Part shown: piece by piece, positions 20,181 through 53,398 of the stretch
How the letters are laid out: each line of letters begins with the position of its first letter
How positions within the stretch are numbered: the stretch's first letter is position 1
DNA from: Candidatus Lustribacter sp.
Lineage (GTDB): Bacteria; Vulcanimicrobiota; Vulcanimicrobiia; Vulcanimicrobiales; Vulcanimicrobiaceae
Length of the DNA: 64,000 nucleotides
Reading direction: 5' to 3'
NCBI GenBank assembly: GCA_965277805.1
Contig: OZ255842.1
Location: 4,384,001 to 4,448,000, forward strand
Program-made: the position numbers and the translations under genes
Notes under the pieces: generated by a model
What the model saw: the letters and a program-made list of their open reading frames with translations, nothing else
Told to the model about the DNA's origin: nothing
The model's database searches: none

Positions 20181-20708
20181 ATGGTTGACGACGTCGAGTC
20201 GCTCATCACCGATGAGATGCGCGCGTGCATCGGCTACACGACGCCGCCGCTCGCGATTCCCGAAGAGATCAGCGCATCCGATGTGCGGCACTTCGTCTCC
20301 GTCATCGGCGAGACGAACCCGATCTACCGCGACGCGGCCTACGCACGGCGCATGGGCTACAAGGGCGTCGTCGTCCCGCCGATCTTCGTTGTCATTCTCT
20401 TCCGCCGCATTCAGGTACCGGTCGGACAACGGCCGGGTCTCGATTGGGGTCCGCTCCAGTTGCCGCCATCGTTCAAGAACACACGCAACGCCGGTCAAGT
20501 CTATGAGTGGCTGCGACCGGTGTACGTCGGCGACACGCTTACGATCACGACGAAGCTCGTCGATCTGCTGGCGCGCCGCACGCGCGACGGCCGGCCGATG
20601 ATCCTCATCGTTTCGGAATTCGAAATCCGCAATCAGCACGGCGAACTGATCCTCCGTCAGATGAATCACGACGCAAAACTCGAGCTGACGTCGTTCAAAG
20701 CGAGCTGA
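20181..20708 (+). CDS. MaoC/FAS1-like dehydratase (hot-dog fold)
   Basis: VRHFVSVIGETNPIYRD..YA...GY...VVPP; YEWLRPVYVGDTL; NQHGE. Confidence 0.88.
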   Translation: MVDDVESLITDEMRACIGYTTPPLAIPEEISASDVRHFVSVIGETNPIYRDAAYARRMGYKGVVVPPIFVVILFRRIQVPVGQRPGLDWGPLQLPPSFKNTRNAGQVYEWLRPVYVGDTLTITTKLVDLLARRTRDGRPMILIVSEFEIRNQHGELILRQMNHDAKLELTSFKAS

Positions 20709-20710
20709 CA

Positions 20711-21838
20711 TTGGGACGGGTGCTCGATCTCTCGCGTCAAGCCGGCGTCTATGCGACCCGGCTCTTGGCCGAGCAAGGTCACGACGTGATTCGGCTCGAG
20801 CCGCCCGGCGGCGATGCGGTGCGGCGTCAAGGACCGTTCCTCGGCGGCGCGCCCGACATCGAAGACGGCGCCTACCATCAGTTCTTCAACGCCGGCAAAC
20901 GCAGCGTTGCGCTCGACGTGACGACGGCCGCCGGCCGCGAAGCATTCGCGCGGCTCGCGCAAATGGCCGACACGATCGTCGCGAGTTTGCCGCTGCCGAT
21001 TCCCGAAGCCGAACTGCGCGCGCGCAATCCGGATCTCGTGCTGGTGCTGATCACCGAAGACGACCGACCCGAGCTGTGCGCGTACGCGCGGTCGGGCCTG
21101 CTCTCGATCACCGGCCATCCCGATCGCGCGCCGGTGCTGATGGGCGGTCACATTATGTACGCCGCCACCGGTCTCTGGGTGATGATCGCGGCCGCATCGG
21201 CGCTGCTCGTGCATCGCATGACCGGCGAAGGCCAAACCGTGACGGTCGACATCCAGCAGTGCTTCGAATCGTTTCTCGATCACGGCATCGAAAACTACAT
21301 GGCGCGCGGACGGCGCGTCGAGCGCAGCGGCGCGCGCGGCTCGGTGACGGCGCTCGCCGGGGCGCTGCCCAGCAGCGACGGCTTCTGGATGCTGAGCTTG
21401 ATGGACTCGCGCGAACAGTGGCGGATGCTGCTCGAGTGGATGGACGATCCGGCGCTGACCAACGACGAGACGCTCGGCAAGTACGAAGCGCGGCTCGCGC
21501 GGCGCGACGAACTGCTCGACCGCATCGGCAACTGGGCGAGCGGATCCACCAAGCTCGACGTTGTGAGCGAGGCGCAGAGCCGCCACATTCCGGCGGCGCC
21601 GATTGCGACCTCGCTCGATCTGGCCGAAGACGCGCAGTTGATCGACCGCCGCTTTTTGGTCGAGATCGATCACCCCGCGCACGGTCATATGCTCTTCCCG
21701 CGCGGCGCGCTCGCCACGATCTGGGATCGCGAAATGCCGGTCGCGCCACGGCTGGGTTCGGCCAACGCCGAGATCTTGCGCGAAGTGGGTTACACGGAAG
21801 AAGAATGCGTGCTGCTGTTCGAACGGAGCGTGATATGA
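20711..21838 (+). CDS. Class III (CaiB/BaiF) CoA-transferase subunit, apparently lacking the catalytic Asp
   Basis: RVLDLS, LLAEQGHDVIRLEPPGGD..R, NAGKRSVALD, APRLG; GHIMY where ..D is usual. Start TTG 20711 is an estimate. Confidence 0.85.
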   Translation: MGRVLDLSRQAGVYATRLLAEQGHDVIRLEPPGGDAVRRQGPFLGGAPDIEDGAYHQFFNAGKRSVALDVTTAAGREAFARLAQMADTIVASLPLPIPEAELRARNPDLVLVLITEDDRPELCAYARSGLLSITGHPDRAPVLMGGHIMYAATGLWVMIAAASALLVHRMTGEGQTVTVDIQQCFESFLDHGIENYMARGRRVERSGARGSVTALAGALPSSDGFWMLSLMDSREQWRMLLEWMDDPALTNDETLGKYEARLARRDELLDRIGNWASGSTKLDVVSEAQSRHIPAAPIATSLDLAEDAQLIDRRFLVEIDHPAHGHMLFPRGALATIWDREMPVAPRLGSANAEILREVGYTEEECVLLFERSVI

Positions 21839-22332
21839 GGCATCCCGATCCGGTTGAGGTCGAACAGCGGTATTTCGAGGATGTCCACGTCGGCACCGAG
21901 ATCCCGCCGCGCGACTTCGGGCCCCACACGCTGCTCAGCGCGGTGTTCTGGGCGGCCGTGCAAGAAAACGCCGGACTGCTGCACCTCGATCGCGATTACG
22001 TGCGCGAATTCCGCGGCGCACCCTCGATCGTGGTCAGCGGTCAGCAGCGCCAGAGTTTGCTCACCCGCGCGCTGATGGACTGGGCCGGCCCGCGCGGCTT
22101 CCTGCGCAAGATGGATTGCCGGCACCGCACCTCGACCTACGAAGGCGACTCGCACATTTTCTCGGCCAAGGTGATCGAGAAATCGAGCGATCCCGAATCG
22201 CCGTGGATCGTATTGGAGTTCGACGGCCGCAATCAAAAAGACGAGCAGATCTTGCGCGGCACGTGCACGATTCTGTTGCCGCGCCTCGACTGGCCGATCG
22301 AGCGCCACGTGTGGGACGCCGAGACGCCGTGA
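21835..22332 (+). CDS. MaoC-like dehydratase (hot-dog fold)
   Basis: RYFEDVHVGTEIP, LHLDRDY, DWAGPRG, GRNQKDE; ATGA overlap. Confidence 0.82.
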   Translation: MRHPDPVEVEQRYFEDVHVGTEIPPRDFGPHTLLSAVFWAAVQENAGLLHLDRDYVREFRGAPSIVVSGQQRQSLLTRALMDWAGPRGFLRKMDCRHRTSTYEGDSHIFSAKVIEKSSDPESPWIVLEFDGRNQKDEQILRGTCTILLPRLDWPIERHVWDAETP

Positions 22333-23489
22333 GCAGCCTGAGCGGCAAGTACGCAATCGTGGGCGTCGGTGAATCCGACGTCGGTCAGCGCACGGGCCGC
22401 ACCGGCATGGAACTGCACCTCGAAGCGGCGACGCGCGCCATCGCCGATGCGCGCATTGAGAAGTCGGCGATCGATAGCGTGATCGCGCGGCCCGCGCACA
22501 GCGCGAACATGGACAACTACTCCGCCGTGCTGGCCTACCAGCTCGGCCTGCAGCCCGCGTACATCACCGACGTCGGCCTCAGCGGCGCATCGTCGGTGTC
22601 GATGATCCTCGCCGCGGTGGCGGCGCTCGAAGCTGGGTTCTGCACGATGGCGCTGTGCGTGAACGGCGACTCGTCGAGTTCGCGCGGTTCGGCCAAAGAG
22701 ATGCACGCCGCGCACCGCAATTGGATCGACGATCTCGAGCGGCCGTACGGCTTGGTCGGTGCGCCGATCCAGTACGCGCTGCCCGCGATGCGGCACATGT
22801 ACGAATTCGGTACGACGAGCGAACAGTTCGGCGCGATCGCGGTCGCCTGCCGCAAGCACGGCGCCCTCACGCCCAACGCGGTGTGGCGCGAGCCGATTAC
22901 GCTGGCCGAGCATCAAGCCTCGCGCATGATCGTCGATCCGTTCCATCGCCTCGATTGCTGCGGCACGACCGACGGCGCGGGCGCCGTGATCGTGACGTCG
23001 GCCGAACGCGCGCGCGACCTGGCGCAAAAGGCCGTGTACGTACTCGGCCTCGGCCAGCACGCCTCGCACGCCGACGTGCAGTACGCCGCCTCGATGACGA
23101 CGAGCGCCGCCAAAGGCGCCGCGGACCAAGCCTACGCGATGGCGGGCCTGCGGCCGATCGACATCGACGTGGCCGAACTCTACGATTGCTTCACCTCGGT
23201 CGTGCTCGTCACGCTCGAAGATTACGGCTTTTGCAAGAAGGGCGAGGGCGGACCGTTCGTCGAGGGCGGCCGGATCGAACTCGGCGGCGAATTGCCGGTG
23301 AACACGAGCGGGGGACTGCTCTCGCAAGTCAACGCCAGCGGATTCTTTCACATCACCGAAGCGGCCACGCAGATGCGCGGCAGCGCCGGTGCGCGTCAGG
23401 TCGAGGACGCGGAAACCGCCATCGTCAGCGGACAGTGCGCGGTGACCGGCGTCAACGCATGTCTCATTCTCGGAAACCAACAGCCTTAA
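22329..23489 (+). CDS. SCP2/Ltp2-type thiolase-fold protein (probably non-thiolytic)
   Basis: AIVGVGES, DCC..TDGAGAVIVTS, AELYDCF, LPVNTSGGLLS; no catalytic Cys at LSGASS. Confidence 0.9.
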   Translation: MSSLSGKYAIVGVGESDVGQRTGRTGMELHLEAATRAIADARIEKSAIDSVIARPAHSANMDNYSAVLAYQLGLQPAYITDVGLSGASSVSMILAAVAALEAGFCTMALCVNGDSSSSRGSAKEMHAAHRNWIDDLERPYGLVGAPIQYALPAMRHMYEFGTTSEQFGAIAVACRKHGALTPNAVWREPITLAEHQASRMIVDPFHRLDCCGTTDGAGAVIVTSAERARDLAQKAVYVLGLGQHASHADVQYAASMTTSAAKGAADQAYAMAGLRPIDIDVAELYDCFTSVVLVTLEDYGFCKKGEGGPFVEGGRIELGGELPVNTSGGLLSQVNASGFFHITEAATQMRGSAGARQVEDAETAIVSGQCAVTGVNACLILGNQQP

Positions 23490-23504
23490 CATGGGAGCCT
23501 TCGC

Positions 23505-24608
23505 ATGATCGCCTGTCTTTCTCCGAACGGACAAAACACGACGCGCGGCAACGATGCCGTGACGAAGTTGCTGGTGGCAACGGTCGAGGGCATCAGCGTA
23601 CTCGAGCGCGAGCGGCCCGGTGCCGAGTGGCAAAACCGCGGCCACAAGCTCGAGGGCAAGCACTGCAGCTCGATCATGATCGAGCCCAAGCGCGGCGGCA
23701 TCTTTGCCGGTTTTCACGAGAACGGCGGCCTCTACTTCAGCAGCGACGGCGGCGAGACGTGGGAGCGCCGTATGAACGGTCTCACGATCGATCACGTCTT
23801 CTCGGTCGCGTACGCGCATCACGGCGATAAGGTCGTGTTGTATGCGGGCACCGAACCCGCGTCGATCTTCCGCAGCGACGACTACGGCTTGACGTGGGTC
23901 GAGCAGACCGGCGTGAAAGAGGCGCCCGATCGCGACAAGTGGCTCTTCCCGGGCAAACCGCACATCCCGCACGTGAAATCGATCACGGTGAGCCTCGCCG
24001 ATCCGAACATGGTGTGGGCGCTGGTCGAACAGGGCGCGCTCATGCGCACGACCGACGGCGGCGCGACCTGGATCGAACAAAAAGATTACTCCAAGCCCGA
24101 AGATCACAACTACCGCGACGTGCACCAGCTCACCATGCACCCGGTGAACACGAACGAGTTGTGGCTCACCACCGGCATGGGCGCCTACCACAGCCTCAAC
24201 AGCGGTGAGAAGTGGGAGCAGATCACCGACACGTCGTTCCGCGTCGGCTATCCCGACCATACGTTCGTCTCGCCGCTCGATCCCGACATGATGTTCGTTT
24301 CGGGCGCGATGATGTATCCGGGGCACTGGAAGAAAGTGCACCGCGCCGATCCCACGGTGATGAAGTCGCGAGATCGCGGACGCACGTGGGCTGATTCGAG
24401 CGAAGGTCTCGCCGAAGACCGCCGCGCGAACATCGAAGCGATGAGCATGGCGATCTATCCCGGCGGCTTCTCGCTCTTCGTCGGCAACACCGACGGCGAG
24501 GTCTACGAAACCGGCGATGCGGCCGAACACTGGACGCAGATCGCGCGTGCGCTCGGCCCGGTGTCGAAGATCTATCACTACAAGAACTTGCTGCCCGTTC
24601 CGGCGTGA
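23505..24608 (+). CDS. BNR/Asp-box repeat beta-propeller protein, no signal peptide
   Basis: Repeated S-x-D-x-G-x-T-W boxes (SSDGGETW, SDDYGLTW, TTDGGATW, SRDRGRTW); AGTEPA. Confidence 0.85.
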   Translation: MIACLSPNGQNTTRGNDAVTKLLVATVEGISVLERERPGAEWQNRGHKLEGKHCSSIMIEPKRGGIFAGFHENGGLYFSSDGGETWERRMNGLTIDHVFSVAYAHHGDKVVLYAGTEPASIFRSDDYGLTWVEQTGVKEAPDRDKWLFPGKPHIPHVKSITVSLADPNMVWALVEQGALMRTTDGGATWIEQKDYSKPEDHNYRDVHQLTMHPVNTNELWLTTGMGAYHSLNSGEKWEQITDTSFRVGYPDHTFVSPLDPDMMFVSGAMMYPGHWKKVHRADPTVMKSRDRGRTWADSSEGLAEDRRANIEAMSMAIYPGGFSLFVGNTDGEVYETGDAAEHWTQIARALGPVSKIYHYKNLLPVPA

Positions 24609-25813
24609 TCGCACACGAACGGGCGCAAACGGCGTCCGGTGTCAGCCCGATTGCCGGGCTGAAGGTCTTCGACTTCACCCACGTCTTCGCCGGCCCGTTC
24701 TGCACGCGCACGCTGGCCGATCTCGGCGCCGACGTCGTGCACGTGGAAAGCCCGTCGCGCGATCCGGGCGACCGCCATCGCGCGACCTACGCGCACCGCA
24801 ACAAACGCTCGATCGCGCTCGACCTCAAGAGCGAAGCGGGACACGCTGTTGCGATGCAACTGGCGATGGGCGCCGACGTGATCGTCGAAAACTTCAGCGC
24901 CGGCGTAATGCGACGCTTGAAGCTCGACTACGAAACGCTCAGCAAAGACAACCCGCGCCTGATCTACATCAGCCTCTCGGGTTACGGCCATACCGGTCCG
25001 CGCAAATCGTGGACCAGCATGAACATGAACCTGCAGGCGTACACAGGTCTCATGCTCACGACCGGCGCTGAGGGCGATCCGCCGACCGCGATCTCGAATT
25101 CGTGGAACGACTACATCGGCGGCCTGCACGGTATCATCGCCGTGCTCGGCGCACTGACCGAGCGCGAAGACACCGGCCGCGGCCGCAACATCGACTTGAG
25201 CCAATTCGAGTGCAGCGTTGCGACGGTCGGCGCGCTCTTGATGGCGTCGGCCGTTTCGGGCAAACCGCCGAAGCGCTGGGGCAACCGTTCGAGCAGCGCC
25301 GCGCCGCAAGGCGCCTATCCGTGTGACGGCACCGACGAATGGTGCGTGATCGTCGCCGAAACCGACGAGCAGTGGCGTGCGCTGGCAAACGCGATCGGCC
25401 GCGCCGACCTCGCCGCCGACGAACGCTTCGCAACGGTGGTCGGACGGATGCGTCATCACGACGAGCTCGATGCGGCGATCGGCGCGTGGACGCGCGGCCG
25501 CCGCAACACCGAGGTGGAGCAGACGCTGCAGGCCGCCGGCGTTCCGGCCGAACGGATGCGGCGCGTGGACGACGTCGTCGAATCGCCGGATTCGGGCGGC
25601 GCATACCGGCCCGTGCCCGGCGAGCGGAAGAAGCCGCTCGTTGCCCCGTCGGTGCCGTTCACGTTCAGCAAGAGCACCGTGGCAACGTTCACCGCGCCGT
25701 GCACGTTAGGAGAACATACCGAAGAGGTACTGCGTGACTGGCTAGGCTTAGACGCCGCCGCAATCGCGTCGTTGCAGAGCCGGAACGCGTTCGGAGCTGA
25801 AAGGACAAACTGA
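24605..25813 (+). CDS. Class III (CaiB/BaiF) CoA-transferase with catalytic Asp
   Basis: GLKVFDFTHVFAGPFCTR.LADLGADV, RNKRSIALDLK, ADVIVENF, SGYGHTGP, WNDYIGG. Confidence 0.93.
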   Translation: MIAHERAQTASGVSPIAGLKVFDFTHVFAGPFCTRTLADLGADVVHVESPSRDPGDRHRATYAHRNKRSIALDLKSEAGHAVAMQLAMGADVIVENFSAGVMRRLKLDYETLSKDNPRLIYISLSGYGHTGPRKSWTSMNMNLQAYTGLMLTTGAEGDPPTAISNSWNDYIGGLHGIIAVLGALTEREDTGRGRNIDLSQFECSVATVGALLMASAVSGKPPKRWGNRSSSAAPQGAYPCDGTDEWCVIVAETDEQWRALANAIGRADLAADERFATVVGRMRHHDELDAAIGAWTRGRRNTEVEQTLQAAGVPAERMRRVDDVVESPDSGGAYRPVPGERKKPLVAPSVPFTFSKSTVATFTAPCTLGEHTEEVLRDWLGLDAAAIASLQSRNAFGAERTN

Positions 25814-26757
25814 TGGCCTCGTATTCGCGCGCCGCAGCATTGACCGGTATCGCCGCACTCGCCGCCGCGCCGGCGATCGTTCGCGGCGCCGACTTGGCTC
25901 CGATCCGCATCGGCGCCGCGCCGACCGACGCGACCGCCCAGCATCTCTACGCGCAAGACCTCGGCATGTTCGCGGCTGCCGGGCTCAGCGCGGAAATCCA
26001 GCCGATGCGAACGTCGGCATCGCTGATCGCGGCGATCGTCGGCGGCTCGCTCGATGTCATGACGAGCACGGTCGTTTCCATCGCGCTCGCGCACAACAAG
26101 GGCATCGATATGCGCGTGATCGCGGAAGGTAACGTCTACGACGGCCCGCCGCCGCAAGCGGCGATCGTGGTCGCGCCGAACTCGACGATCAAGAACGGCG
26201 CCGATCTCAACGGCAAGACCGTTGCGGTGAACGGTCTCGGCGATCTCACCCAAGTGGCGATCGCGGCGTGGATCGACGCTAACGGCGGCGAGTCGAAGTC
26301 GGTGAAGCTGATCGAGGTGCCGTTCTCCGGTGTCGGCGCGGCGCTCGCGCAAGGACGCATCGATGCCGCGCTGCTGGTCGAACCGTTCACGGCGGCGGCC
26401 CGCGCGGCGGGCCAGATCAAGATTCTCGGTGACCCGCAAGCAGCGATCGGACGCGGCTATATGGTCACCGGCTGGTATGCGAAGGCCGACTGGCTGAACG
26501 CGAATCGCGATACGGCGCGGCGGTTCGTCGACGTGATGCTGCAGACGGCGAAGTGGGGCAACGCGCATCATCCCGAGTCGGCAGCGATCCTGGCGAAGTA
26601 CGTGGGCATGACGGCCGATGCGATCCAGACGTCGCCGCGCGCCGTTTACGGCGAGAAGCCGATTCAGCCGGCGATGATTCAGCCCGTGCTGGACTTCTCG
26701 ACCAAGTACATCGGCCTCGAAAAGACGTCGGCCGCGGCGTTGATCTGGCGCGCTTAA
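25813..26757 (+). CDS. SsuA/NMT1-type ABC solute-binding protein
   Basis: YSRAAAL leader; DLNGKTVAVNGL, GRIDAALLVEPF. Confidence 0.9.
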   Translation: MASYSRAAALTGIAALAAAPAIVRGADLAPIRIGAAPTDATAQHLYAQDLGMFAAAGLSAEIQPMRTSASLIAAIVGGSLDVMTSTVVSIALAHNKGIDMRVIAEGNVYDGPPPQAAIVVAPNSTIKNGADLNGKTVAVNGLGDLTQVAIAAWIDANGGESKSVKLIEVPFSGVGAALAQGRIDAALLVEPFTAAARAAGQIKILGDPQAAIGRGYMVTGWYAKADWLNANRDTARRFVDVMLQTAKWGNAHHPESAAILAKYVGMTADAIQTSPRAVYGEKPIQPAMIQPVLDFSTKYIGLEKTSAAALIWRA

Positions 26758-27207: not shown

Positions 27208-27720
27208 ATGGCTGAATCCGAACGCACGCGCTCGCGAGAGCGCGAACGCCCCACCCAAAGCGCTTACGAGGTGGCAATCACCTACGATAAGGAGCGCACC
27301 GAGCGGCAAAGCGTCGGCCGCGTCGTTTTGCGGTTGGAAGATTGCCCGCAAGAGCAAACGCGTCAGGGCCTCTTGCGCCCGTACCTCGATCCCTTCCTCA
27401 TTCCCGACACGCCGTTGCAGCACTGGGCCGTGTTCACGCACGAGATCCATACGAAATCTGGTAAGCACCGTCATCAAGGCGGTCTCGTGATCTACGTGAT
27501 CGACGGCAAGGGCTGGTCCGTGGTCAACGGCGAGAAAGTCGATTGGGAGAAGGGTGACCTGGTGTTGCTGCCGTTGGAAAAAGGCGGCGTCGAGCACCAG
27601 CACTTTAATGCCGACCCGGCGCATCCGGCGCTCTGGATCGCGTTCATTCACTTTCCGCTGCGCGACTACGTCGCCTCCGAAATGACGCAACTCGAAACCG
27701 CGGTGGACTATCGTGAGTGA
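27208..27720 (+). CDS. Cupin-domain protein (metal ligands intact)
   Basis: SGKHRHQGG..YVIDGKG.S...DWEKGD..EHQHFN. Confidence 0.88.
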   Translation: MAESERTRSRERERPTQSAYEVAITYDKERTERQSVGRVVLRLEDCPQEQTRQGLLRPYLDPFLIPDTPLQHWAVFTHEIHTKSGKHRHQGGLVIYVIDGKGWSVVNGEKVDWEKGDLVLLPLEKGGVEHQHFNADPAHPALWIAFIHFPLRDYVASEMTQLETAVDYRE

Positions 27721-28231
27721 TCGTACCGAACGGCTCGCCGAACAAAACTTCTGGGATCAGATTTTCGAGCTGCGCGACGAACAGCGCGCGCAGCGCAAGA
27801 ACGGCATCATGGTCATCAAGGAAGCGCAGCTGCCGCTCGAGGTCAACAAACAAGGCTTGATGCGCTGGTACATGCATCCGGGCATCAAAGACACGATCCT
27901 TTCGTGCTATCTCGTGTACTCGCAAGAGATTCCGCCTGGCAGCCGCTCGGGGCGGCTCTTGTTCGGCGGCGATCAGGTGATCTACGTCGTGGCCGGTCAA
28001 GGCTATACCGTGCTCGACGGCGTGAAGCATCCGTGGAAGGCCGGCGACGCGTTGAACTTGCCGCTGCGCAAGCCCGGCATCACCGTGCAGCACTTCAACA
28101 CCGATCCCGAGATCACGGCGAAGTTGATCGCCGTCGAGCCGAACTTTCTGCAATGCGCGAGCGTCGATCGAGGCACCGGTTTCGAACAGCTTGAAAACGC
28201 CCCCGAATACGACCGCGCAAAACGAGGCTGA
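27713..28231 (+). CDS. Cupin-domain protein (metal ligands largely lost)
   Basis: EIPPGSRSGRLLFGGD..YVVAGQGYT...WKAGD..TVQHFN; paralog of the preceding cupin. Confidence 0.85.
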   Translation: MSDRTERLAEQNFWDQIFELRDEQRAQRKNGIMVIKEAQLPLEVNKQGLMRWYMHPGIKDTILSCYLVYSQEIPPGSRSGRLLFGGDQVIYVVAGQGYTVLDGVKHPWKAGDALNLPLRKPGITVQHFNTDPEITAKLIAVEPNFLQCASVDRGTGFEQLENAPEYDRAKRG

Positions 28232-28236
28232 TCCCG

Positions 28237-30381
28237 TTGACTCACGCTCATAACCACGCCCACGCTCCGAACGCCGTCCCGCACGTGCACGCAACCGTCG
28301 ACAATCTCGGGGCCACGGCCGGCGGGAGTGCGCGGCAGCGTATCGTGCTCGACGCGGCTCAGATGCAACAGCTCGGGCTTGCGGCCGGCGATACGGTGCG
28401 CGTTGCGACCGAGCGCGGCCGCAGTACGGTTGCCCGGCTCGAGGCTCCGGCCGCCGACGGCAACACCGATATCGTGCGCATGGACCGCTTCGTGCGCCAA
28501 GCGTTGAAGGCGCGTCTCAACGAGTCGGTCGAGATCGAGCCGATCACGCTGGGGCCGGCCAAGCGTCTGGAGTTACTGCCGGCCGCCGACGTCACGACCG
28601 CGCACGATCTGATTCCGCACTTGACCGCGCTGCTCAGTGCCGACAGCACGGTCGTCAGCCGCGATACCGTTCTGTATCTGCCGTTTCCCGGCACGAATTC
28701 CGGCACGACGTATCAAGTCATCACGGTCGACGACGGTCCGGGCTACGTCACGGCCGACACGCAGATCGTCATGCACTATGCCGACGCGCACGTGCCGACC
28801 GGCGCGATGGACGTCACGTTCGAAGACGTCGGCGGCCTCGGCTCGCAGATCCGCGCGGTGCGCGAATTGGTGCAGCTGCCGCTGAAGTTTCCACACGTCT
28901 ACCAGCAGCTCGGCATCGTGGCGCCGCGGGGCATCATCCTCTACGGCCCGCCGGGCGCCGGTAAGACGCGCATGGCACGCGCGATCGCAAACGAGGTCGA
29001 GGCGCGCTTCTACTACATCAACGGTCCCGATATCATCGGTACCTATGCCGGCGAGACCGAAGGCAACTTGCGACGGATCTTCGGCGAGGCCGGACACCAC
29101 TCGCCCTCGATCATCTTCATCGACGAACTCGATGCGATCGCGCCCAAGCGCGGCGAAACCGGCGCGCATGCCGACATTCGCGTCGTCACCCAATTGCTCT
29201 CGTTGATGGACGGTCTCGGGCAAGTGGATGCGGTGGTCGTCGTTGCCACGACGAACCGGCTCGACAGTGTCGACCCGGCGTTCCGGCGTCCGGGCCGCTT
29301 CGATCGCGAGATTTTCGTCGGTCCGCCCGACATCGCCGGCCGTCGCGAAGTGCTCGATATCCACACGCGTGAGATGCCGCTCGCGCCCGATGCAATAGCT
29401 GCGCTCGACGATGTGGCGTATCGCACGCACGGTTTCGTCGGTGCCGACTTGATGGAGCTCTGTCGCGAGGCGGGCCTCTCCGCGCTGCGCCGCAACACGT
29501 CGATGCTGGCCGATCACCGCTCGGCGTTTCGTTTGCAGTCGGAGCAGATCACCGTGTCGCGCGGAGACTTTGAGCACGCGCTCGCGCATGTACGGCCGTC
29601 GGCCTTGCGCGAAACGCTGATCTCGCGACCCGACGTCACGTGGGCCGATGTCGGCGGCATGGACGCGCTGCGGGAAGAGCTGCGCGAGCTCGTCGAGATG
29701 CCGCTGCACAAGCCGGATGTGCTCGCCCAAATGGGACTGTCGGCGCACTCGGGGGTGCTGCTCTACGGCGCGCCCGGCACCGGCAAGACGCTGCTCGCGC
29801 AGGCGGTCGCCAACGAATGCGGCGTGAACTTCATCGCCGTCAACGGTCCGGAGCTGTTCACCAAGTGGCTCGGCGAGTCGGAAGAGGCCGTGCGGCACAT
29901 CTTCCGTATCGCGCGTCAAGTTGCGCCGGCGGTGATCTTCTTCGATCAGCTGGATTCGATCACGCCGGTGCGCGGCGACCATAGCGGTTCGATGACGACC
30001 GAACGCGTCGTCAACCAGCTGCTCGCGGAACTCGACGGCATCGAACCGCTCTCGGGCATCGTCGTGCTGGCCGCGACCAATCGCATCGATCTCGTCGATC
30101 CGGCGATCCTGCGTCCGGGACGGTTCGGCACGCACGTCCACGTGCCGCTGCCCGACGCGGCCGGCCGCCGCGCAATTCTCGAACTCTTCCTCACCGGCAA
30201 CGTCGATGCATCGATCGACGAGCTGGTGCCGCTCACCGAAGGGTTTTCCGGTGCGCAACTGCGCGAACTTTGCGCGCGCGCCAAACGGCTCGCGCTCCGG
30301 CGCACCGGTTACACCGGCGCCGTCGCCACCACCACAGCGGATCTGCTCAAAGCTATCGAAACCGTGAAGGAGCCGACATGA
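28237..30381 (+). CDS. CDC48/p97/VAT-family double AAA+ ATPase
   Basis: CDC48-like N domain (LGL..GD.V, VRMD...R); D1 [38 protein letters not shown] linker; D2 [29 protein letters not shown]. Confidence 0.93.
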
Positions 30382-31337
30382 CCTCACGCATCTCACGCCG
30401 CGGAAGCCTCGCCGGCATTGGGGCCGCGCTCGCCGCGAGCACGTTGCCGCGCGCCGCGCGTGCCGACGCCGTTCCGCTGCGCGTCGCGCTCGTGCCGATC
30501 TGGGACGTTGCGCCGTACTATGCCGCCGAGCAGCAGGGCTACTTCGCGGCGGAAAATTTGGTGTGCACGCCGTCCTTCGTGCGCGGCGGAGCGGTCGGTA
30601 TTCCGGCCGTCGTCGGCGGGACGTACGACATGGTCTACGCTAACGGCACGAGCATCGTTCAGGCGATCTCGAAAGGTATCGACCTGCGGATCATCATCGA
30701 GGGCGCGCCGATCGGCTCGAAGCCGCCGGATCCCGGCGCGCTGCTCAAGCGCAAAGGCGACCCGTTCAAGACGGGCAAGGACCTCGAAGGCAAGGTCGTC
30801 GGCGTGAACGCGCTGCGCGACGTGCAGTGGATGCTCGTCACGGCGTGGGTCAAAGTCACCGGCGGCGACCCCGACAAAGTGCAGATCGTCGAGATTCCGC
30901 TGCCCTCGATGGTCGACGCCCTCAAGCAAAAACGCGTCGACGCGGCGCTGGCGCTCGATCCGTTCATGACGATGGGCTTAGCCGATCCCGCAATCGAATT
31001 GCTCGACTGGGCCTTGAGCCGCGCGTACCCCAACGGCCCCGTCGGCTTCTTCGCCGTCACGCCGGAGTTGACGGCGAAACGCGGCAACGATCTGCGCGCG
31101 TTCGTGCGGGCGTACAAGCGCGGGGCGGCGTGGTGCAACGCCAACGCCGGCAAGGAACCGTTCATCAAACTCGTGGCCGGTTACAGCAGCATCGCGCCCG
31201 ATCTCGTCGCGCAGATGAAACCGATTCCGGCCCATGCCGAAATCGTGCCGAGCGACTTGCCGCGCCTGACCGCGCTCATGACGCAAACCGGTCTGCTCAA
31301 CACTCCCGTCGATCTGCGCAGCAAGATCTTCACCTAA
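30378..31337 (+). CDS. SsuA/NMT1-type ABC solute-binding protein (Tat-like signal)
   Basis: AAGGAG SD; ISRRGSL leader; DLEGKVVGVNAL, KRVDAALALDPF. Confidence 0.9.
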   Translation: MTSRISRRGSLAGIGAALAASTLPRAARADAVPLRVALVPIWDVAPYYAAEQQGYFAAENLVCTPSFVRGGAVGIPAVVGGTYDMVYANGTSIVQAISKGIDLRIIIEGAPIGSKPPDPGALLKRKGDPFKTGKDLEGKVVGVNALRDVQWMLVTAWVKVTGGDPDKVQIVEIPLPSMVDALKQKRVDAALALDPFMTMGLADPAIELLDWALSRAYPNGPVGFFAVTPELTAKRGNDLRAFVRAYKRGAAWCNANAGKEPFIKLVAGYSSIAPDLVAQMKPIPAHAEIVPSDLPRLTALMTQTGLLNTPVDLRSKIFT

Positions 31338-51459: not shown

Positions 51460-52418
51460 AATCCGTGTTCCGTCCCGTCTCCTGTTTGCTCGCCGTCGCC
51501 GTCGTTTTGGGCTTCGGACAACCGTCGCTTGGTCAACCGGCCTTGACGGTGGTGCATGTTGCGTCGAACATCAACGACGACGTCACGCCGCTGCTCTACG
51601 CACTGCACGCGCATCTGTTCGAGAAGGCCGGATTGCAAGTCGACATCGCGCCGATGAACAGCGGGTCGGCGGTGACTGCCGCGGTGATCGGCGGATCGAT
51701 CGATATCGGAAAATCGAGCATCCTGCCGCTGGTGAGCGCGCACTTCCGCAAGTTGCCGATTGCGGCCGTTGCGCCGGGCGAACTCTGGCTCCAGGATTCG
51801 CCGATCTCCGCGCTGGTCGTGAGCAAAAACGCCGGCATCAGCAACGTCAAAGACCTCGCCGGCAAGGTGATCGCGGTGCAAGCGTTGCGCGACTTCTCCG
51901 AGTTCGCGTTGCGCGATTGGGTTGACAGCATGGGTGGCGACTCTTCAGCCCTGAAGGTGATCGAGGTTCCGCAGTCGTCGATACTGACCGCCATCCAAGA
52001 CGGCCGCATCGCCGGCGCGAACATGAGCAATCCGGGCCTCGCGACCGTCCTCGCCTCGAACACCGCGAACATCATCGGCCGGCCCGACAATGCGATCGGG
52101 AAGCACTACCTCCTGACCGCCTGGTTTGCATCGACGTCGTACATCGCCGGGCATCCCGACGTCATTCGCAAGTTCGCCGAAGTGATGAGCCAGGCGTCGC
52201 GTTATACGAACACGCATCACGCCGAGACCGTCCCGATCACGGCCCCGTTTTGGGGCATAGATCCCAACGTTCTCGGCCACATGCCGCGCGCCGAGATCGG
52301 CGATCGCCTCGACGCCGCCGATCTGCAGCCGGTCGTGAATCTCGCCGCCAAGTATGGCATCATCGACAAGGCGTTCGACGCGCACGAACTGATCGCGAAC
52401 ACCGGCGCCGCGAAGTGA
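51456..52418 (+). CDS. SsuA/NMT1-type ABC solute-binding protein
   Basis: Signal peptide; NSGSAVTAAVIGGSIDIGKS, DLAGK, LQPVVNLAAKYG. Confidence 0.9.
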   Translation: MKSVFRPVSCLLAVAVVLGFGQPSLGQPALTVVHVASNINDDVTPLLYALHAHLFEKAGLQVDIAPMNSGSAVTAAVIGGSIDIGKSSILPLVSAHFRKLPIAAVAPGELWLQDSPISALVVSKNAGISNVKDLAGKVIAVQALRDFSEFALRDWVDSMGGDSSALKVIEVPQSSILTAIQDGRIAGANMSNPGLATVLASNTANIIGRPDNAIGKHYLLTAWFASTSYIAGHPDVIRKFAEVMSQASRYTNTHHAETVPITAPFWGIDPNVLGHMPRAEIGDRLDAADLQPVVNLAAKYGIIDKAFDAHELIANTGAAK

Positions 52419-53398
52419 AGACGTTTTACGACGATTGGCTGAAGGCGCGCGAGCAGGTCGACGCAACCCTCGACGGCACGCCGCTGGTCGCGCGCGACCG
52501 CGACATCCCGTGGGTCGAAACCCCGCAGGACGCCAAGTGCAAGCTGATGGTCGCCAACGAGCTCGGTTTCGCCACGATGGGCAGCAACGTGCTCAAGGGC
52601 GAGATTCCAGTCGGCTGGCACACCGGCAAACATCGGCATGGGGAAGAGTCGATGCACATCCTCGAGGGCGAGGGATACAGCATCATTAATGGCCAGCGCT
52701 TCGATTGGCACAAGCACAGCACGCTGCAGATTCCGTTCTACGCCGAACATCAGCATTTCAACACTGGCTCGCTACCCGTGCTATATATCTCAGGCATGGT
52801 GTTCGATCTCGAACGCTACGTGCGGGTCGCGCGGCTCGAACAGCTCGAGACGCACGGACCGAACGGCGAACTCGAACCCGCGCCGGCGGAGCAATCGCAG
52901 TACTATCCCGACGGCAGCCGGGCGATCATCCACATCGAAGATGCCCCGGCTAACGACCCGTCATACTCGGCTCAGGGAAACATCGCCGCGGTCCAAAACC
53001 AGCACGACTTCATGCAGTACCTGGCGTTGCCGAAGAACGGCTTTCGCACGACCAGCGTGGCGATTACGCACCTCTGGATTGAGCCGGCGTTTCATCACAG
53101 CGGCCGGCACAAACATCTCGAAGCCGTGGTGTACGCGGTCGAAGGCCAAGGGTACACCGAGATGCAGGGGCGCGTCGTGCAGTGGGAAGCCGGCGACGTG
53201 CTCTACGTGCCGCCCGCGATGTGGGAACACGAACACACCAACGACAACCCGAACCCGATCAAGCAATTGCGCATCGCGTTCGGAATCCGCGCGTGGTTCA
53301 CCGAGGTGTGGCCCGAAGGGTTCACGAGTCAGCGCATTTACGACAAGACCGGAAAGCCGATCGAACACGGCGCGATCGAGCGCCACCGCGAACGCTGA
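52415..53398 (+). CDS. Bicupin protein (gentisate dioxygenase-like fold)
   Basis: Two cupin motifs: TGKHRHGEE..EHQHFN and SGRHKHLEA..WEHEHTN; GTGA overlap. Confidence 0.88.
   Translation: MKTFYDDWLKAREQVDATLDGTPLVARDRDIPWVETPQDAKCKLMVANELGFATMGSNVLKGEIPVGWHTGKHRHGEESMHILEGEGYSIINGQRFDWHKHSTLQIPFYAEHQHFNTGSLPVLYISGMVFDLERYVRVARLEQLETHGPNGELEPAPAEQSQYYPDGSRAIIHIEDAPANDPSYSAQGNIAAVQNQHDFMQYLALPKNGFRTTSVAITHLWIEPAFHHSGRHKHLEAVVYAVEGQGYTEMQGRVVQWEAGDVLYVPPAMWEHEHTNDNPNPIKQLRIAFGIRAWFTEVWPEGFTSQRIYDKTGKPIEHGAIERHRER

Follow-up and report, generated by a model that had tools for sequence, protein, structure and literature searches.

A Cdc48/VAT-Like ATPase with a Clade-Wide Glutamine in the D2 Walker B Motif and Its Linkage to a Pair of Cupin Genes in Bacteria

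Introduction

A stretch of 64,000 nucleotides from Candidatus Lustribacter sp. (Vulcanimicrobiota; GenBank assembly GCA_965277805.1, contig OZ255842.1, positions 4,384,001 to 4,448,000 of the forward strand), referred to below as the window, carries within a catabolic gene cluster the gene of an AAA+ ATPase related to Cdc48, p97, and VAT. The catalytic glutamate that is expected in the second ATPase module (D2) of the CDC48/p97/VAT family is not present in this protein, and glutamine stands in its place. In AAA+ proteins the Walker B glutamate is routinely exchanged for glutamine when hydrolysis is to be blocked, and D2 is the main motor of p97. In the bacterial Cdc48 homolog Cpa, such an exchange (E566Q) was used as a hydrolysis-blocking mutation, according to the accessible part of the report on that protein (PMC6017811).

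The locus raises the question of what a Cdc48-type machine with such a D2 is for, and which partner it serves. The initial annotation, made from the letters of the window, had suggested a specialized, D1-driven remodeler or a metallochaperone for enzymes of the surrounding pathway, rather than a general proteostasis unfoldase. Here we describe the ATPase, its relatives, and the genes that accompany it. From these sequences we propose, with about an even chance of being right, that the ATPase is a D1-driven, D2-locked, Cdc48-derived remodeler (an "activase" or maturase) dedicated to a heteromeric cupin dioxygenase that would be encoded by two neighboring genes, here called cupA and cupB.

The ATPase and Its Walker B Motifs

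28237-30381, + strand: Cdc48/VAT-like AAA+ ATPase of N-D1-D2 architecture, 714 aa, member of the "D2 Walker-B Gln" clade; open reading frame (ORF) with a TTG start
28237-28296, + strand: His-rich N-terminal tail of the ATPase, residues 1-20; predicted to be disordered, with a predicted local distance difference test score (pLDDT) below 50 at residues 1-11
28819-29616, + strand: D1 AAA module, residues ~195-460; canonical, with K243, pore loop T-Y-A-G, D296-E297, N340, and R351/R354
29629-30336, + strand: D2 AAA module, residues ~465-700; K517, W544, and R629 retained, Walker B glutamate replaced
29947-29949, + strand: Gln571 at the D2 Walker B catalytic position; codon CAG
30127-30129, + strand: Gly631, which replaces the aspartate after the D2 Arg finger; from the alignment of the clade with Glu-type relatives

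The full CDC48 architecture that the initial annotation had recognized is borne out by profile searches, solved relatives, and the predicted structure. Pfam finds CDC48_N (PF02359) at residues 32-104 with 44.5 bits (cut-off 35.1), together with two copies of AAA (PF00004) and two of AAA_lid_3 (PF17862). The NCBIfam model TIGR01243 ("CDC48 family") matches residues 32-690 with 679.2 bits, under its curated cut-off of 802.65. Thermoplasma VAT (5g4f; phmmer E 3e-180) is the top solved relative, followed by p97. The AlphaFold2 (AF2) model, built with 44 homologs, consists of a two-lobed N domain, D1, and D2; its mean pLDDT is 81, and values below 50 are confined to residues 1-11 and 186-190. A GAGG motif lies 9 nt 5' of the TTG start.

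The translation also agrees with the earlier reading of the motifs. Walker B of D1 is the canonical IFIDELD (E297), while that of D2 is IFFDQLD (Q571) with the CAG codon at 29947-29949; the Walker A motif, pore loop, and Arg finger of D2 are intact, as K517, W544, and R629 are present and invariant in the clade of relatives described below. The N-terminus is rich in histidine, and the C-terminus (...VKEPT) carries no HbYX motif, its final three residues being variable among homologs.

Conservation of the D2 Glutamine

The glutamine is a fixed trait of the family, neither an error nor a strain quirk. The protein and its 120 best matches (65-98% identity) all read D-E in D1 and D-Q in D2 (121/121). 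We also collected 80 ATPase loci, 71 bacterial and 9 archaeal, from species-representative genomes by means of peptide patterns of this protein. The D2 Walker B residue is glutamine in 67 of the bacterial loci and histidine in 3 loci of Terriglobia, the remaining one being truncated before D2, so that Q or H is found in 70/70 bacterial loci in which D2 is covered. It is glutamate in 9/9 of the archaeal loci, which belong to Methanosarcinales. The conservation of the D2 "DQ" that the initial annotation had left for checking is thus upheld. In a broader sample, the 150 best representatives at 50% clustering, the position is occupied by E in 126, Q in 17, D in 2, G in 2, and H, N, and P in 1 each.

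A FastTree phylogeny of 164 full-length rows, which is unrooted except for a midpoint root, placed 78 rows on one side of a single branch: 68 with Q, 4 with H, 1 each with N, P, G, and D, and the two loci L069 and L071. This branch, which separates what we call the Gln clade from 86 Glu-type rows, has an SH-like (Shimodaira-Hasegawa-like) support of 88, and the next node one of 95. L069 and L071 had been scored as E because their ORFs are frameshifted; tblastn reads their D2 as IFFDQLEA. Two more non-Glu rows, P0244 and P0253, fall within the Glu side of the tree.

Sequencing or assembly error at the codon was considered and ruled out by the homologs, the loci, and contigs from sequencing runs. 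Two runs (X1 and X2), which may stem from the source sample, gave contigs that match 29112-30381 without a difference; a related contig of a different study (X5) spans 29828-30381 and departs from the window at 18 positions, none of them within 29947-29949. The contigs thus agree with the glutamine at this codon.

Some loci deserve separate mention. In L050, L051, and L052 (Terriglobia/Acidobacteria) the D2 Walker B motif reads VFFDHLDA and cupins still adjoin the ATPase gene, although L052 shows cupA only. In four contigs of metagenome-assembled genomes (L055, L069, L071, and L077) the ATPase match is split or lies within long artificial ORFs, which suggests assembly frameshifts; the L055 sequence has 99% identity to the ATPase gene of the window, yet its one-piece match covers residues 1-368 only.

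Expected Activity of D2

Comparison of 76 Gln-clade rows with 86 Glu-type rows showed which positions separate the two groups. The D2 Walker B column holds Glu in 98% of the Glu-type relatives and Gln in 89% of the clade. The residue after the D2 Arg finger (RPGRF-D) is Asp in 86% of the Glu-type rows, while Gly631 is found in 96% of the clade. A few positions of D1 also set the clade apart (Y222, T274, an insertion of one residue at 309, D313, A386, and E407), and the motifs of D1 are all canonical and invariant or nearly so. Within the clade the mean pairwise identity is highest in D1 (0.68), followed by D2 (0.57) and the N domain (0.41). Because glutamine replaces the Walker B glutamate and glycine replaces the aspartate after the Arg finger, we infer by analogy with other AAA+ proteins that D2 should bind ATP but hydrolyze it very poorly, and that D1 would then be the motor.

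Another explanation is that D2 still hydrolyzes ATP, slowly or with the help of another residue, and that the protein is an ordinary two-motor unfoldase specialized for cupins. The complete conservation of K517, of the pore-loop W544, and of R629 in the clade (100% each) speaks for such a D2, as does a conservation of D2 that lags only moderately behind that of D1. We nevertheless consider an active D2 distinctly unlikely. The Glu-to-Gln exchange is the very one used to block hydrolysis, the clade tolerates H, N, P, G, or D at the position, which indicates that no carboxylate is required there, and Gly631 takes away another conserved acidic residue of the site. In addition, D2 has gained no acidic residue specific to the clade; the two clade-specific acidic gains, D313 and E407, are both in D1. 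A D2 that would hold ATP and hardly turn it over is the version that we prefer.

Linkage to the Cupin Pair

27208-27720, + strand: cupA, monocupin of 170 aa, gentisate/salicylate 1,2-dioxygenase type; from Pfam Cupin_2, phmmer, and Foldseek
27713-28231, + strand: cupB, cupin paralog of 172 aa without HxH ligands, presumably a non-catalytic partner subunit; from alignment, the Pfam match being weak

The cupB gene ends at 28231 and leaves a gap of 5 nt to the ATPase start, as the initial annotation had noted. Linkage was examined by tblastn with the window neighbors and by jackhmmer classification of all ORFs, both anchored on the ATPase. A cupA- or cupB-type gene lies within 5 kb (<=5 kb) in 65/71 bacterial ATPase loci, and both types do so in 56/71. 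Among the 55 loci whose flanks reach 3 kb or more in both directions, the figures are 52/55 and 47/55. The nine archaeal Glu-type loci have no cupin genes alongside.

The cupin genes accompany the ATPase in at least four orders: cupA-cupB-ATPase, cupB-ATPase-cupA, a divergent cupA beside cupB-ATPase, and ATPase-cupB-cupA. The synteny that the initial annotation had proposed to test is thus conserved as a neighborhood, with a shuffled order. By record title, the hosts of the bacterial loci are mostly Pseudomonadota (54 Alphaproteobacteria and 4 Betaproteobacteria); the others are 3 Vulcanimicrobiota, 1 "Candidatus Eremiobacteraeota," 5 Acidobacteriota, 1 Bacillota, 1 Chloroflexota, and 1 "Deltaproteobacteria." The loci span about six phyla in all: Pseudomonadota, Vulcanimicrobiota, Acidobacteriota, Bacillota, Chloroflexota, and, through a single record so labeled, Myxococcota.

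A tie to the CoA-transferase genes, and more generally to the enzymes of the local pathway, had also been expected, and this part was not supported. Coenzyme A (CoA)-transferase, thiolase-like, and BNR genes adjoin the ATPase in the Eremiobacterota loci only. Elsewhere the flanks differ by lineage and include flavin adenine dinucleotide (FAD)-dependent monooxygenases, bicupin dioxygenase-like proteins, amidohydrolase_2, UbiD, aldehyde:ferredoxin oxidoreductase (AOR), a molybdenum hydroxylase, and binding proteins. Among the neighbors, the cupin pair forms the conserved partner of the ATPase, and the CoA-transferase genes do not.

Could the neighborhood be without functional meaning, a general proteostasis unfoldase that hitch-hikes with a mobile island of catabolic genes? 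Relatives of Cdc48 do act as general unfoldases, and the rare, patchy distribution of the module suggests horizontal transfer of the whole block: cupA was matched in 2/151 sampled genomes of the phylum and in 1/201 of an alphaproteobacterial order, a rarity which makes this sampling uninformative on co-occurrence. However, a general factor would not be so rare, the linkage has outlasted repeated reordering and a full turnover of the other neighbors across about six phyla, and the protein has neither a proteasome partner nor an HbYX motif. We regard hitch-hiking as very improbable and a functional tie between ATPase and cupins as the better explanation. A proteasome partner was looked for as a candidate and rejected: PF00227 gave one match in the source genome, an ORF of 179 aa and HslV size, HbYX is missing, and the C-termini of homologs vary. 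A protein search of a plasmid collection returned no member of the clade, and hence no annotated example from a cultured organism; the relatives that it gave, from Rhizobium, Microvirga, and haloarchaea, all have less than 60% identity.

The Cupin Pair

CupA resembles ring-cleaving dioxygenases. Searched against the PDB with phmmer, it matched the gentisate dioxygenase 3bu7 at E 1e-13 with the HRH motif aligned, and its top Foldseek matches are salicylate and gentisate dioxygenases, the protein being similar to the monocupin 5-nitrosalicylate dioxygenase. In an alignment of 31 sequences H87, H89, E129, H130, and H132 are invariant, so that the three-His site expected in the cupin barrel of a gentisate or salicylate dioxygenase is found at H87/H89/H132. 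The N-terminal ~20 residues (MAExERTRxRER..YE) are conserved across all phyla; in the AF2 model of cupA (pLDDT 87) residues 1-9 are below 50, that is, this conserved N-terminus is modeled as disordered.

CupB is a relative without the metal site. Its Pfam Cupin_2 match is weak (22 bits, under the cut-off), the positions of HRH are L-L-F when it is aligned to gentisate dioxygenase, and it has invariant motifs of its own (PPGSRSGR and VQHFN in the 31 sequences). The two genes are mutual neighbors in most loci. A single-chain bicupin has ~350 aa, whereas here the two chains, of 170 and 172 aa, are encoded separately. Taken together, cupA and cupB resemble a bicupin of the gentisate dioxygenase kind that has been divided into a catalytic and a non-catalytic chain. 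CupA shares the HRH...H motif and the fold with gentisate/salicylate 1,2-dioxygenases (3bu7, 2phd, 3nst) and with the monocupin 5-nitrosalicylate dioxygenase (8ch4), and the pair differs from these in being two genes of ~170 aa each, in the missing ligands of cupB, in the extra tail of cupA, and in the linkage to an AAA+ protein. The cupA family is large, with 745 cluster representatives at E <= 1e-20, all under generic names only.

The number of cupin pairs does not follow that of the ATPase. The source genome (5.5 Mb) has five cupA/cupB pairs and one Cdc48-type gene, the next-best matches being single-module AAA proteins. The four further pairs lie outside the window, near positions 248343, 1137981, 3745116, and 1041717 of the genome, and have 49-71% identity to the window cupA; each is beside NMT1-type binding-protein genes, and one is beside an FAD monooxygenase. 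Five other genomes have one Q-type ATPase each, always beside a cupin pair, and one of them has a second pair elsewhere. In the reverse direction, 80 metagenome loci were anchored on cupA; among the 17 with at least 3.5 kb on both sides the ATPase is present in 6 and cupB in 11, and every ATPase in the cupA-anchored loci reads D-Q. The ATPase is almost never away from the cupins, and the cupins are often away from the ATPase. This asymmetric dependence is the pattern expected of an accessory factor for several clients, which might be shared in trans.

The same facts leave room for a different division of roles, in which the cupins are cofactors of the ATPase, that is, adaptor or sensor subunits like those of p97, which would bind a small aromatic ligand or a metal and steer the unfoldase toward proteins other than themselves, for instance regulators or enzymes of the pathway. 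CupB, a pseudo-enzyme without HxH ligands, fits such a role, and the several cupA/cupB pairs per ATPase here and in L010, L039, L049, and L060 would be like interchangeable adaptors. Cupin domains also act as ligand sensors in AraC-type regulators, and Pfam AraC_binding matches cupA weakly. On the other hand, cupA retains an invariant three-His site and is most like ring-cleaving dioxygenases; 11/17 well-flanked cupA loci have no adjacent ATPase and lie in catabolic clusters as ordinary enzymes do; and no other conserved candidate client was seen near the ATPase in the loci scanned. We hold adaptor cupins to be unlikely, and the cupin pair as the enzyme client to be the preferable reading.

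Proposed Function

A D2-Gln ATPase beside a cupin pair in several phyla points to a helper machine dedicated to one enzyme family. We envisage its work as follows. The client would be the enzyme formed by cupA, its three-His catalytic subunit, and cupB, its ligand-less subunit. D1, with its canonical motifs and aromatic pore loop, would hydrolyze ATP and supply the mechanical work. D2 would bind ATP and hardly hydrolyze it, giving a stable ATP-locked ring for assembly and perhaps for gripping the substrate. As the most plausible handle on the cupin complex, the motor might use the N-terminal tail of cupA, which is conserved and predicted to be disordered. By opening the complex transiently or unfolding part of it, the motor would help the enzyme to assemble, become active, or be repaired, as when an oxidized or wrong metal or a trapped ligand is exchanged. 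In the branch of Eremiobacterota and Alphaproteobacteria the His-rich tail of the ATPase may hold the metal.

This tail occurs, with at least four histidines, in 103/121 near homologs, and 14 more that were missed by the anchor motif are mostly His-rich by eye. It would fit a role in metal handling. The metallochaperone idea of the initial annotation, which draws on this tail, cannot be the core function of the module, as the tail is absent from distant members which still have the cupins, and we see it as an add-on. The other half of that early proposal, a specialized remodeler rather than a general proteostasis factor, fared better: the fixed D2 glutamine, the tie to the cupins, the missing HbYX motif, and the single copy agree with it, while the partner turned out to be the cupin pair and not the whole pathway.

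Several observations weigh against our proposal. First, the tree, unrooted and made with a fast algorithm, is compatible with a single origin of the glutamine without proving one. Second, D2 retains its Walker A motif, Arg finger, and pore-loop tryptophan, and 84% of the clade has the sensor-1 asparagine; the retention of these motifs and a mean identity of 57% indicate strong constraint, under which D2 might keep a slow or compensated hydrolysis. Third, the well-flanked loci L024, L032, and L079 have no cupin within 5 kb. Fourth, the loci were retrieved by patterns and 54/71 are from Alphaproteobacteria, so the linkage counts overstate the independent observations, whose number is closer to that of the lineages than to 55; these counts also leave out the deep representatives of the Gln clade (P0126-P0162, 42-52% identity). 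Fifth, the His-rich tail is lineage-restricted, being missing in members from Betaproteobacteria, Acidobacteriota, and Bacillota that retain the cupin pair. Finally, the cupins may not need the ATPase, given the 11/17 cupA loci without one nearby, and the cupA tail, which is kept in all paralogs and in loci with no adjacent ATPase, may serve another purpose such as oligomer contacts. A complex prediction of cupA, cupB, and the ATPase N domain (residues 1-192), with alignments as input, gave a score of 0.00, which is evidence neither way.

A bolder form of the proposal can be put together from the same sequences, although we find it doubtful in its entirety. Non-haem-iron ring-cleaving dioxygenases would have in the ATPase their first "activase," in which a frozen, ATP-bound D2 grips and D1 alone pulls the cupA tail, so that the heteromeric cupin opens and an oxidized or wrong metal can be replaced, the new metal coming in some lineages from the His-rich tail of the ATPase, and one ATPase serving a whole family of paralogous cupins.

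Were the dedicated remodeler to prove true, it would provide a natural, clade-wide Walker B "trap" in the ring that is the main motor of p97, and what each ring contributes in Cdc48-type machines could be tested with a product of evolution rather than an engineered mutant. The remodeler would also be relevant to the heterologous expression of ring-cleaving enzymes and to the reading of aromatic-degradation clusters of soil and peat bacteria.

Other Genes of the Neighborhood

30378-31337, + strand: NMT1-type solute-binding protein with a twin-arginine-like signal peptide (SRRGSL); its likely ATG overlaps the ATPase stop (ATGA)
25813-26757: second NMT1-type binding protein with a signal peptide
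20181-25813: thiolase-like protein, BNR/Ycf48-like protein, two family-III CoA-transferases, and MaoC dehydratase
52250-53398, + strand: cupin of 382 aa
53402-54229, - strand: single-module AAA ATPase of 275 aa
54995-57061, - strand: LigXa-like Rieske oxygenase

An overlap of the ATPase gene with the downstream binding-protein gene had been noted at the outset and is real. The start at ATG 30378 is the most likely one because the twin-arginine-like signal peptide follows it, so that the overlap is probably 4 nt rather than the 112 nt of the longest ORF. An NMT1-type binding-protein gene adjoins cupA or the ATPase in many loci, but not universally. No gene of an ABC permease or ABC ATPase for the NMT1-type binding proteins was seen among the window neighbors scanned.

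The set at 20181-25813 recurs upstream of cupA in L105 and L108, where no ATPase is nearby, and has the look of a separate pathway in which an enzyme of the cupA type takes part. In Alphaproteobacteria (L009, L014, L017, L021, L025, L026, L031, L040, L066, and others) the module is usually beside one or two bicupins of 350-390 aa and gentisate-dioxygenase type, together with an FAD-dependent aromatic hydroxylase; in one locus a UbiD decarboxylase and a DUF418 protein are present as well. The single-module AAA ATPase of the window belongs to the same catabolic island as the cupin pair; besides the 382-aa cupin and the Rieske oxygenase, it has beside it an ORF of 254 aa without family match. A role in defense was considered for the module and dropped, as PADLOC gave generic AAA matches only (IetA and TRIP13) and none for the cupins.

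Comparison with Known Systems

By sequence the ATPase is a Cdc48/VAT relative that falls short of the family in two respects, the curated score and a catalytic D2. With archaeal VAT/Cdc48 and eukaryotic p97 (TIGR01243; 5g4f, 5g4g) it shares the N-D1-D2 order, CDC48_N, two AAA modules with their lids, and aromatic pore loops in both rings. It differs from them in the clade-wide glutamine and Gly631 of D2, in a TIGR01243 score below the cut-off, in the missing HbYX motif, and in the cupin genes alongside.

NSF has an N-domain, a working D1, and a D2 that forms a nucleotide-binding assembly ring without hydrolysis. The division of labor between the rings that we propose would be the same by analogy. 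NSF is, however, a eukaryotic SNARE-disassembly factor with SNAP adaptors, while the present ATPase is nearer to VAT and p97 in sequence and has a D2 in which the Arg finger and an aromatic pore loop are retained.

Cpa of Actinobacteria is likewise a bacterial Cdc48 homolog with one degenerate ring (PMC6017811). As described in the accessible part of that report, its D1 is degenerate, its D2 motifs are strictly conserved, and it interacts with the 20S proteasome (PMC6017811). The degeneracy is thus opposite to that seen here, where D2 is changed and D1 is canonical. The same part groups non-actinobacterial bacterial Cdc48 homologs with the archaeal ones as probable horizontal transfers, and contains no mention of a Gln variant or of a link to cupins (PMC6017811). 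No description of a cupin-linked or D2-Gln bacterial Cdc48 was found in the open full-text literature, a scope that leaves supplementary files and subscription journals outside.

For cupin or non-haem-iron dioxygenases we know of no activase; extradiol dioxygenases are repaired by XylT-type ferredoxin reduction. Rubisco activases work by pulling on a tail of their client. Rca, CbbX, and CbbQO are, like the present ATPase, AAA+ proteins of the classical clade that stand beside one metabolic enzyme with a conserved flexible terminal tail, as far as the accessible part of the source shows (PMC5437159). They differ from it in being single-ring machines and in having Rubisco as the client. If our proposal holds, cupin dioxygenases would join Rubisco, nitric-oxide reductase, and CO dehydrogenase as enzymes with a private AAA+ helper.

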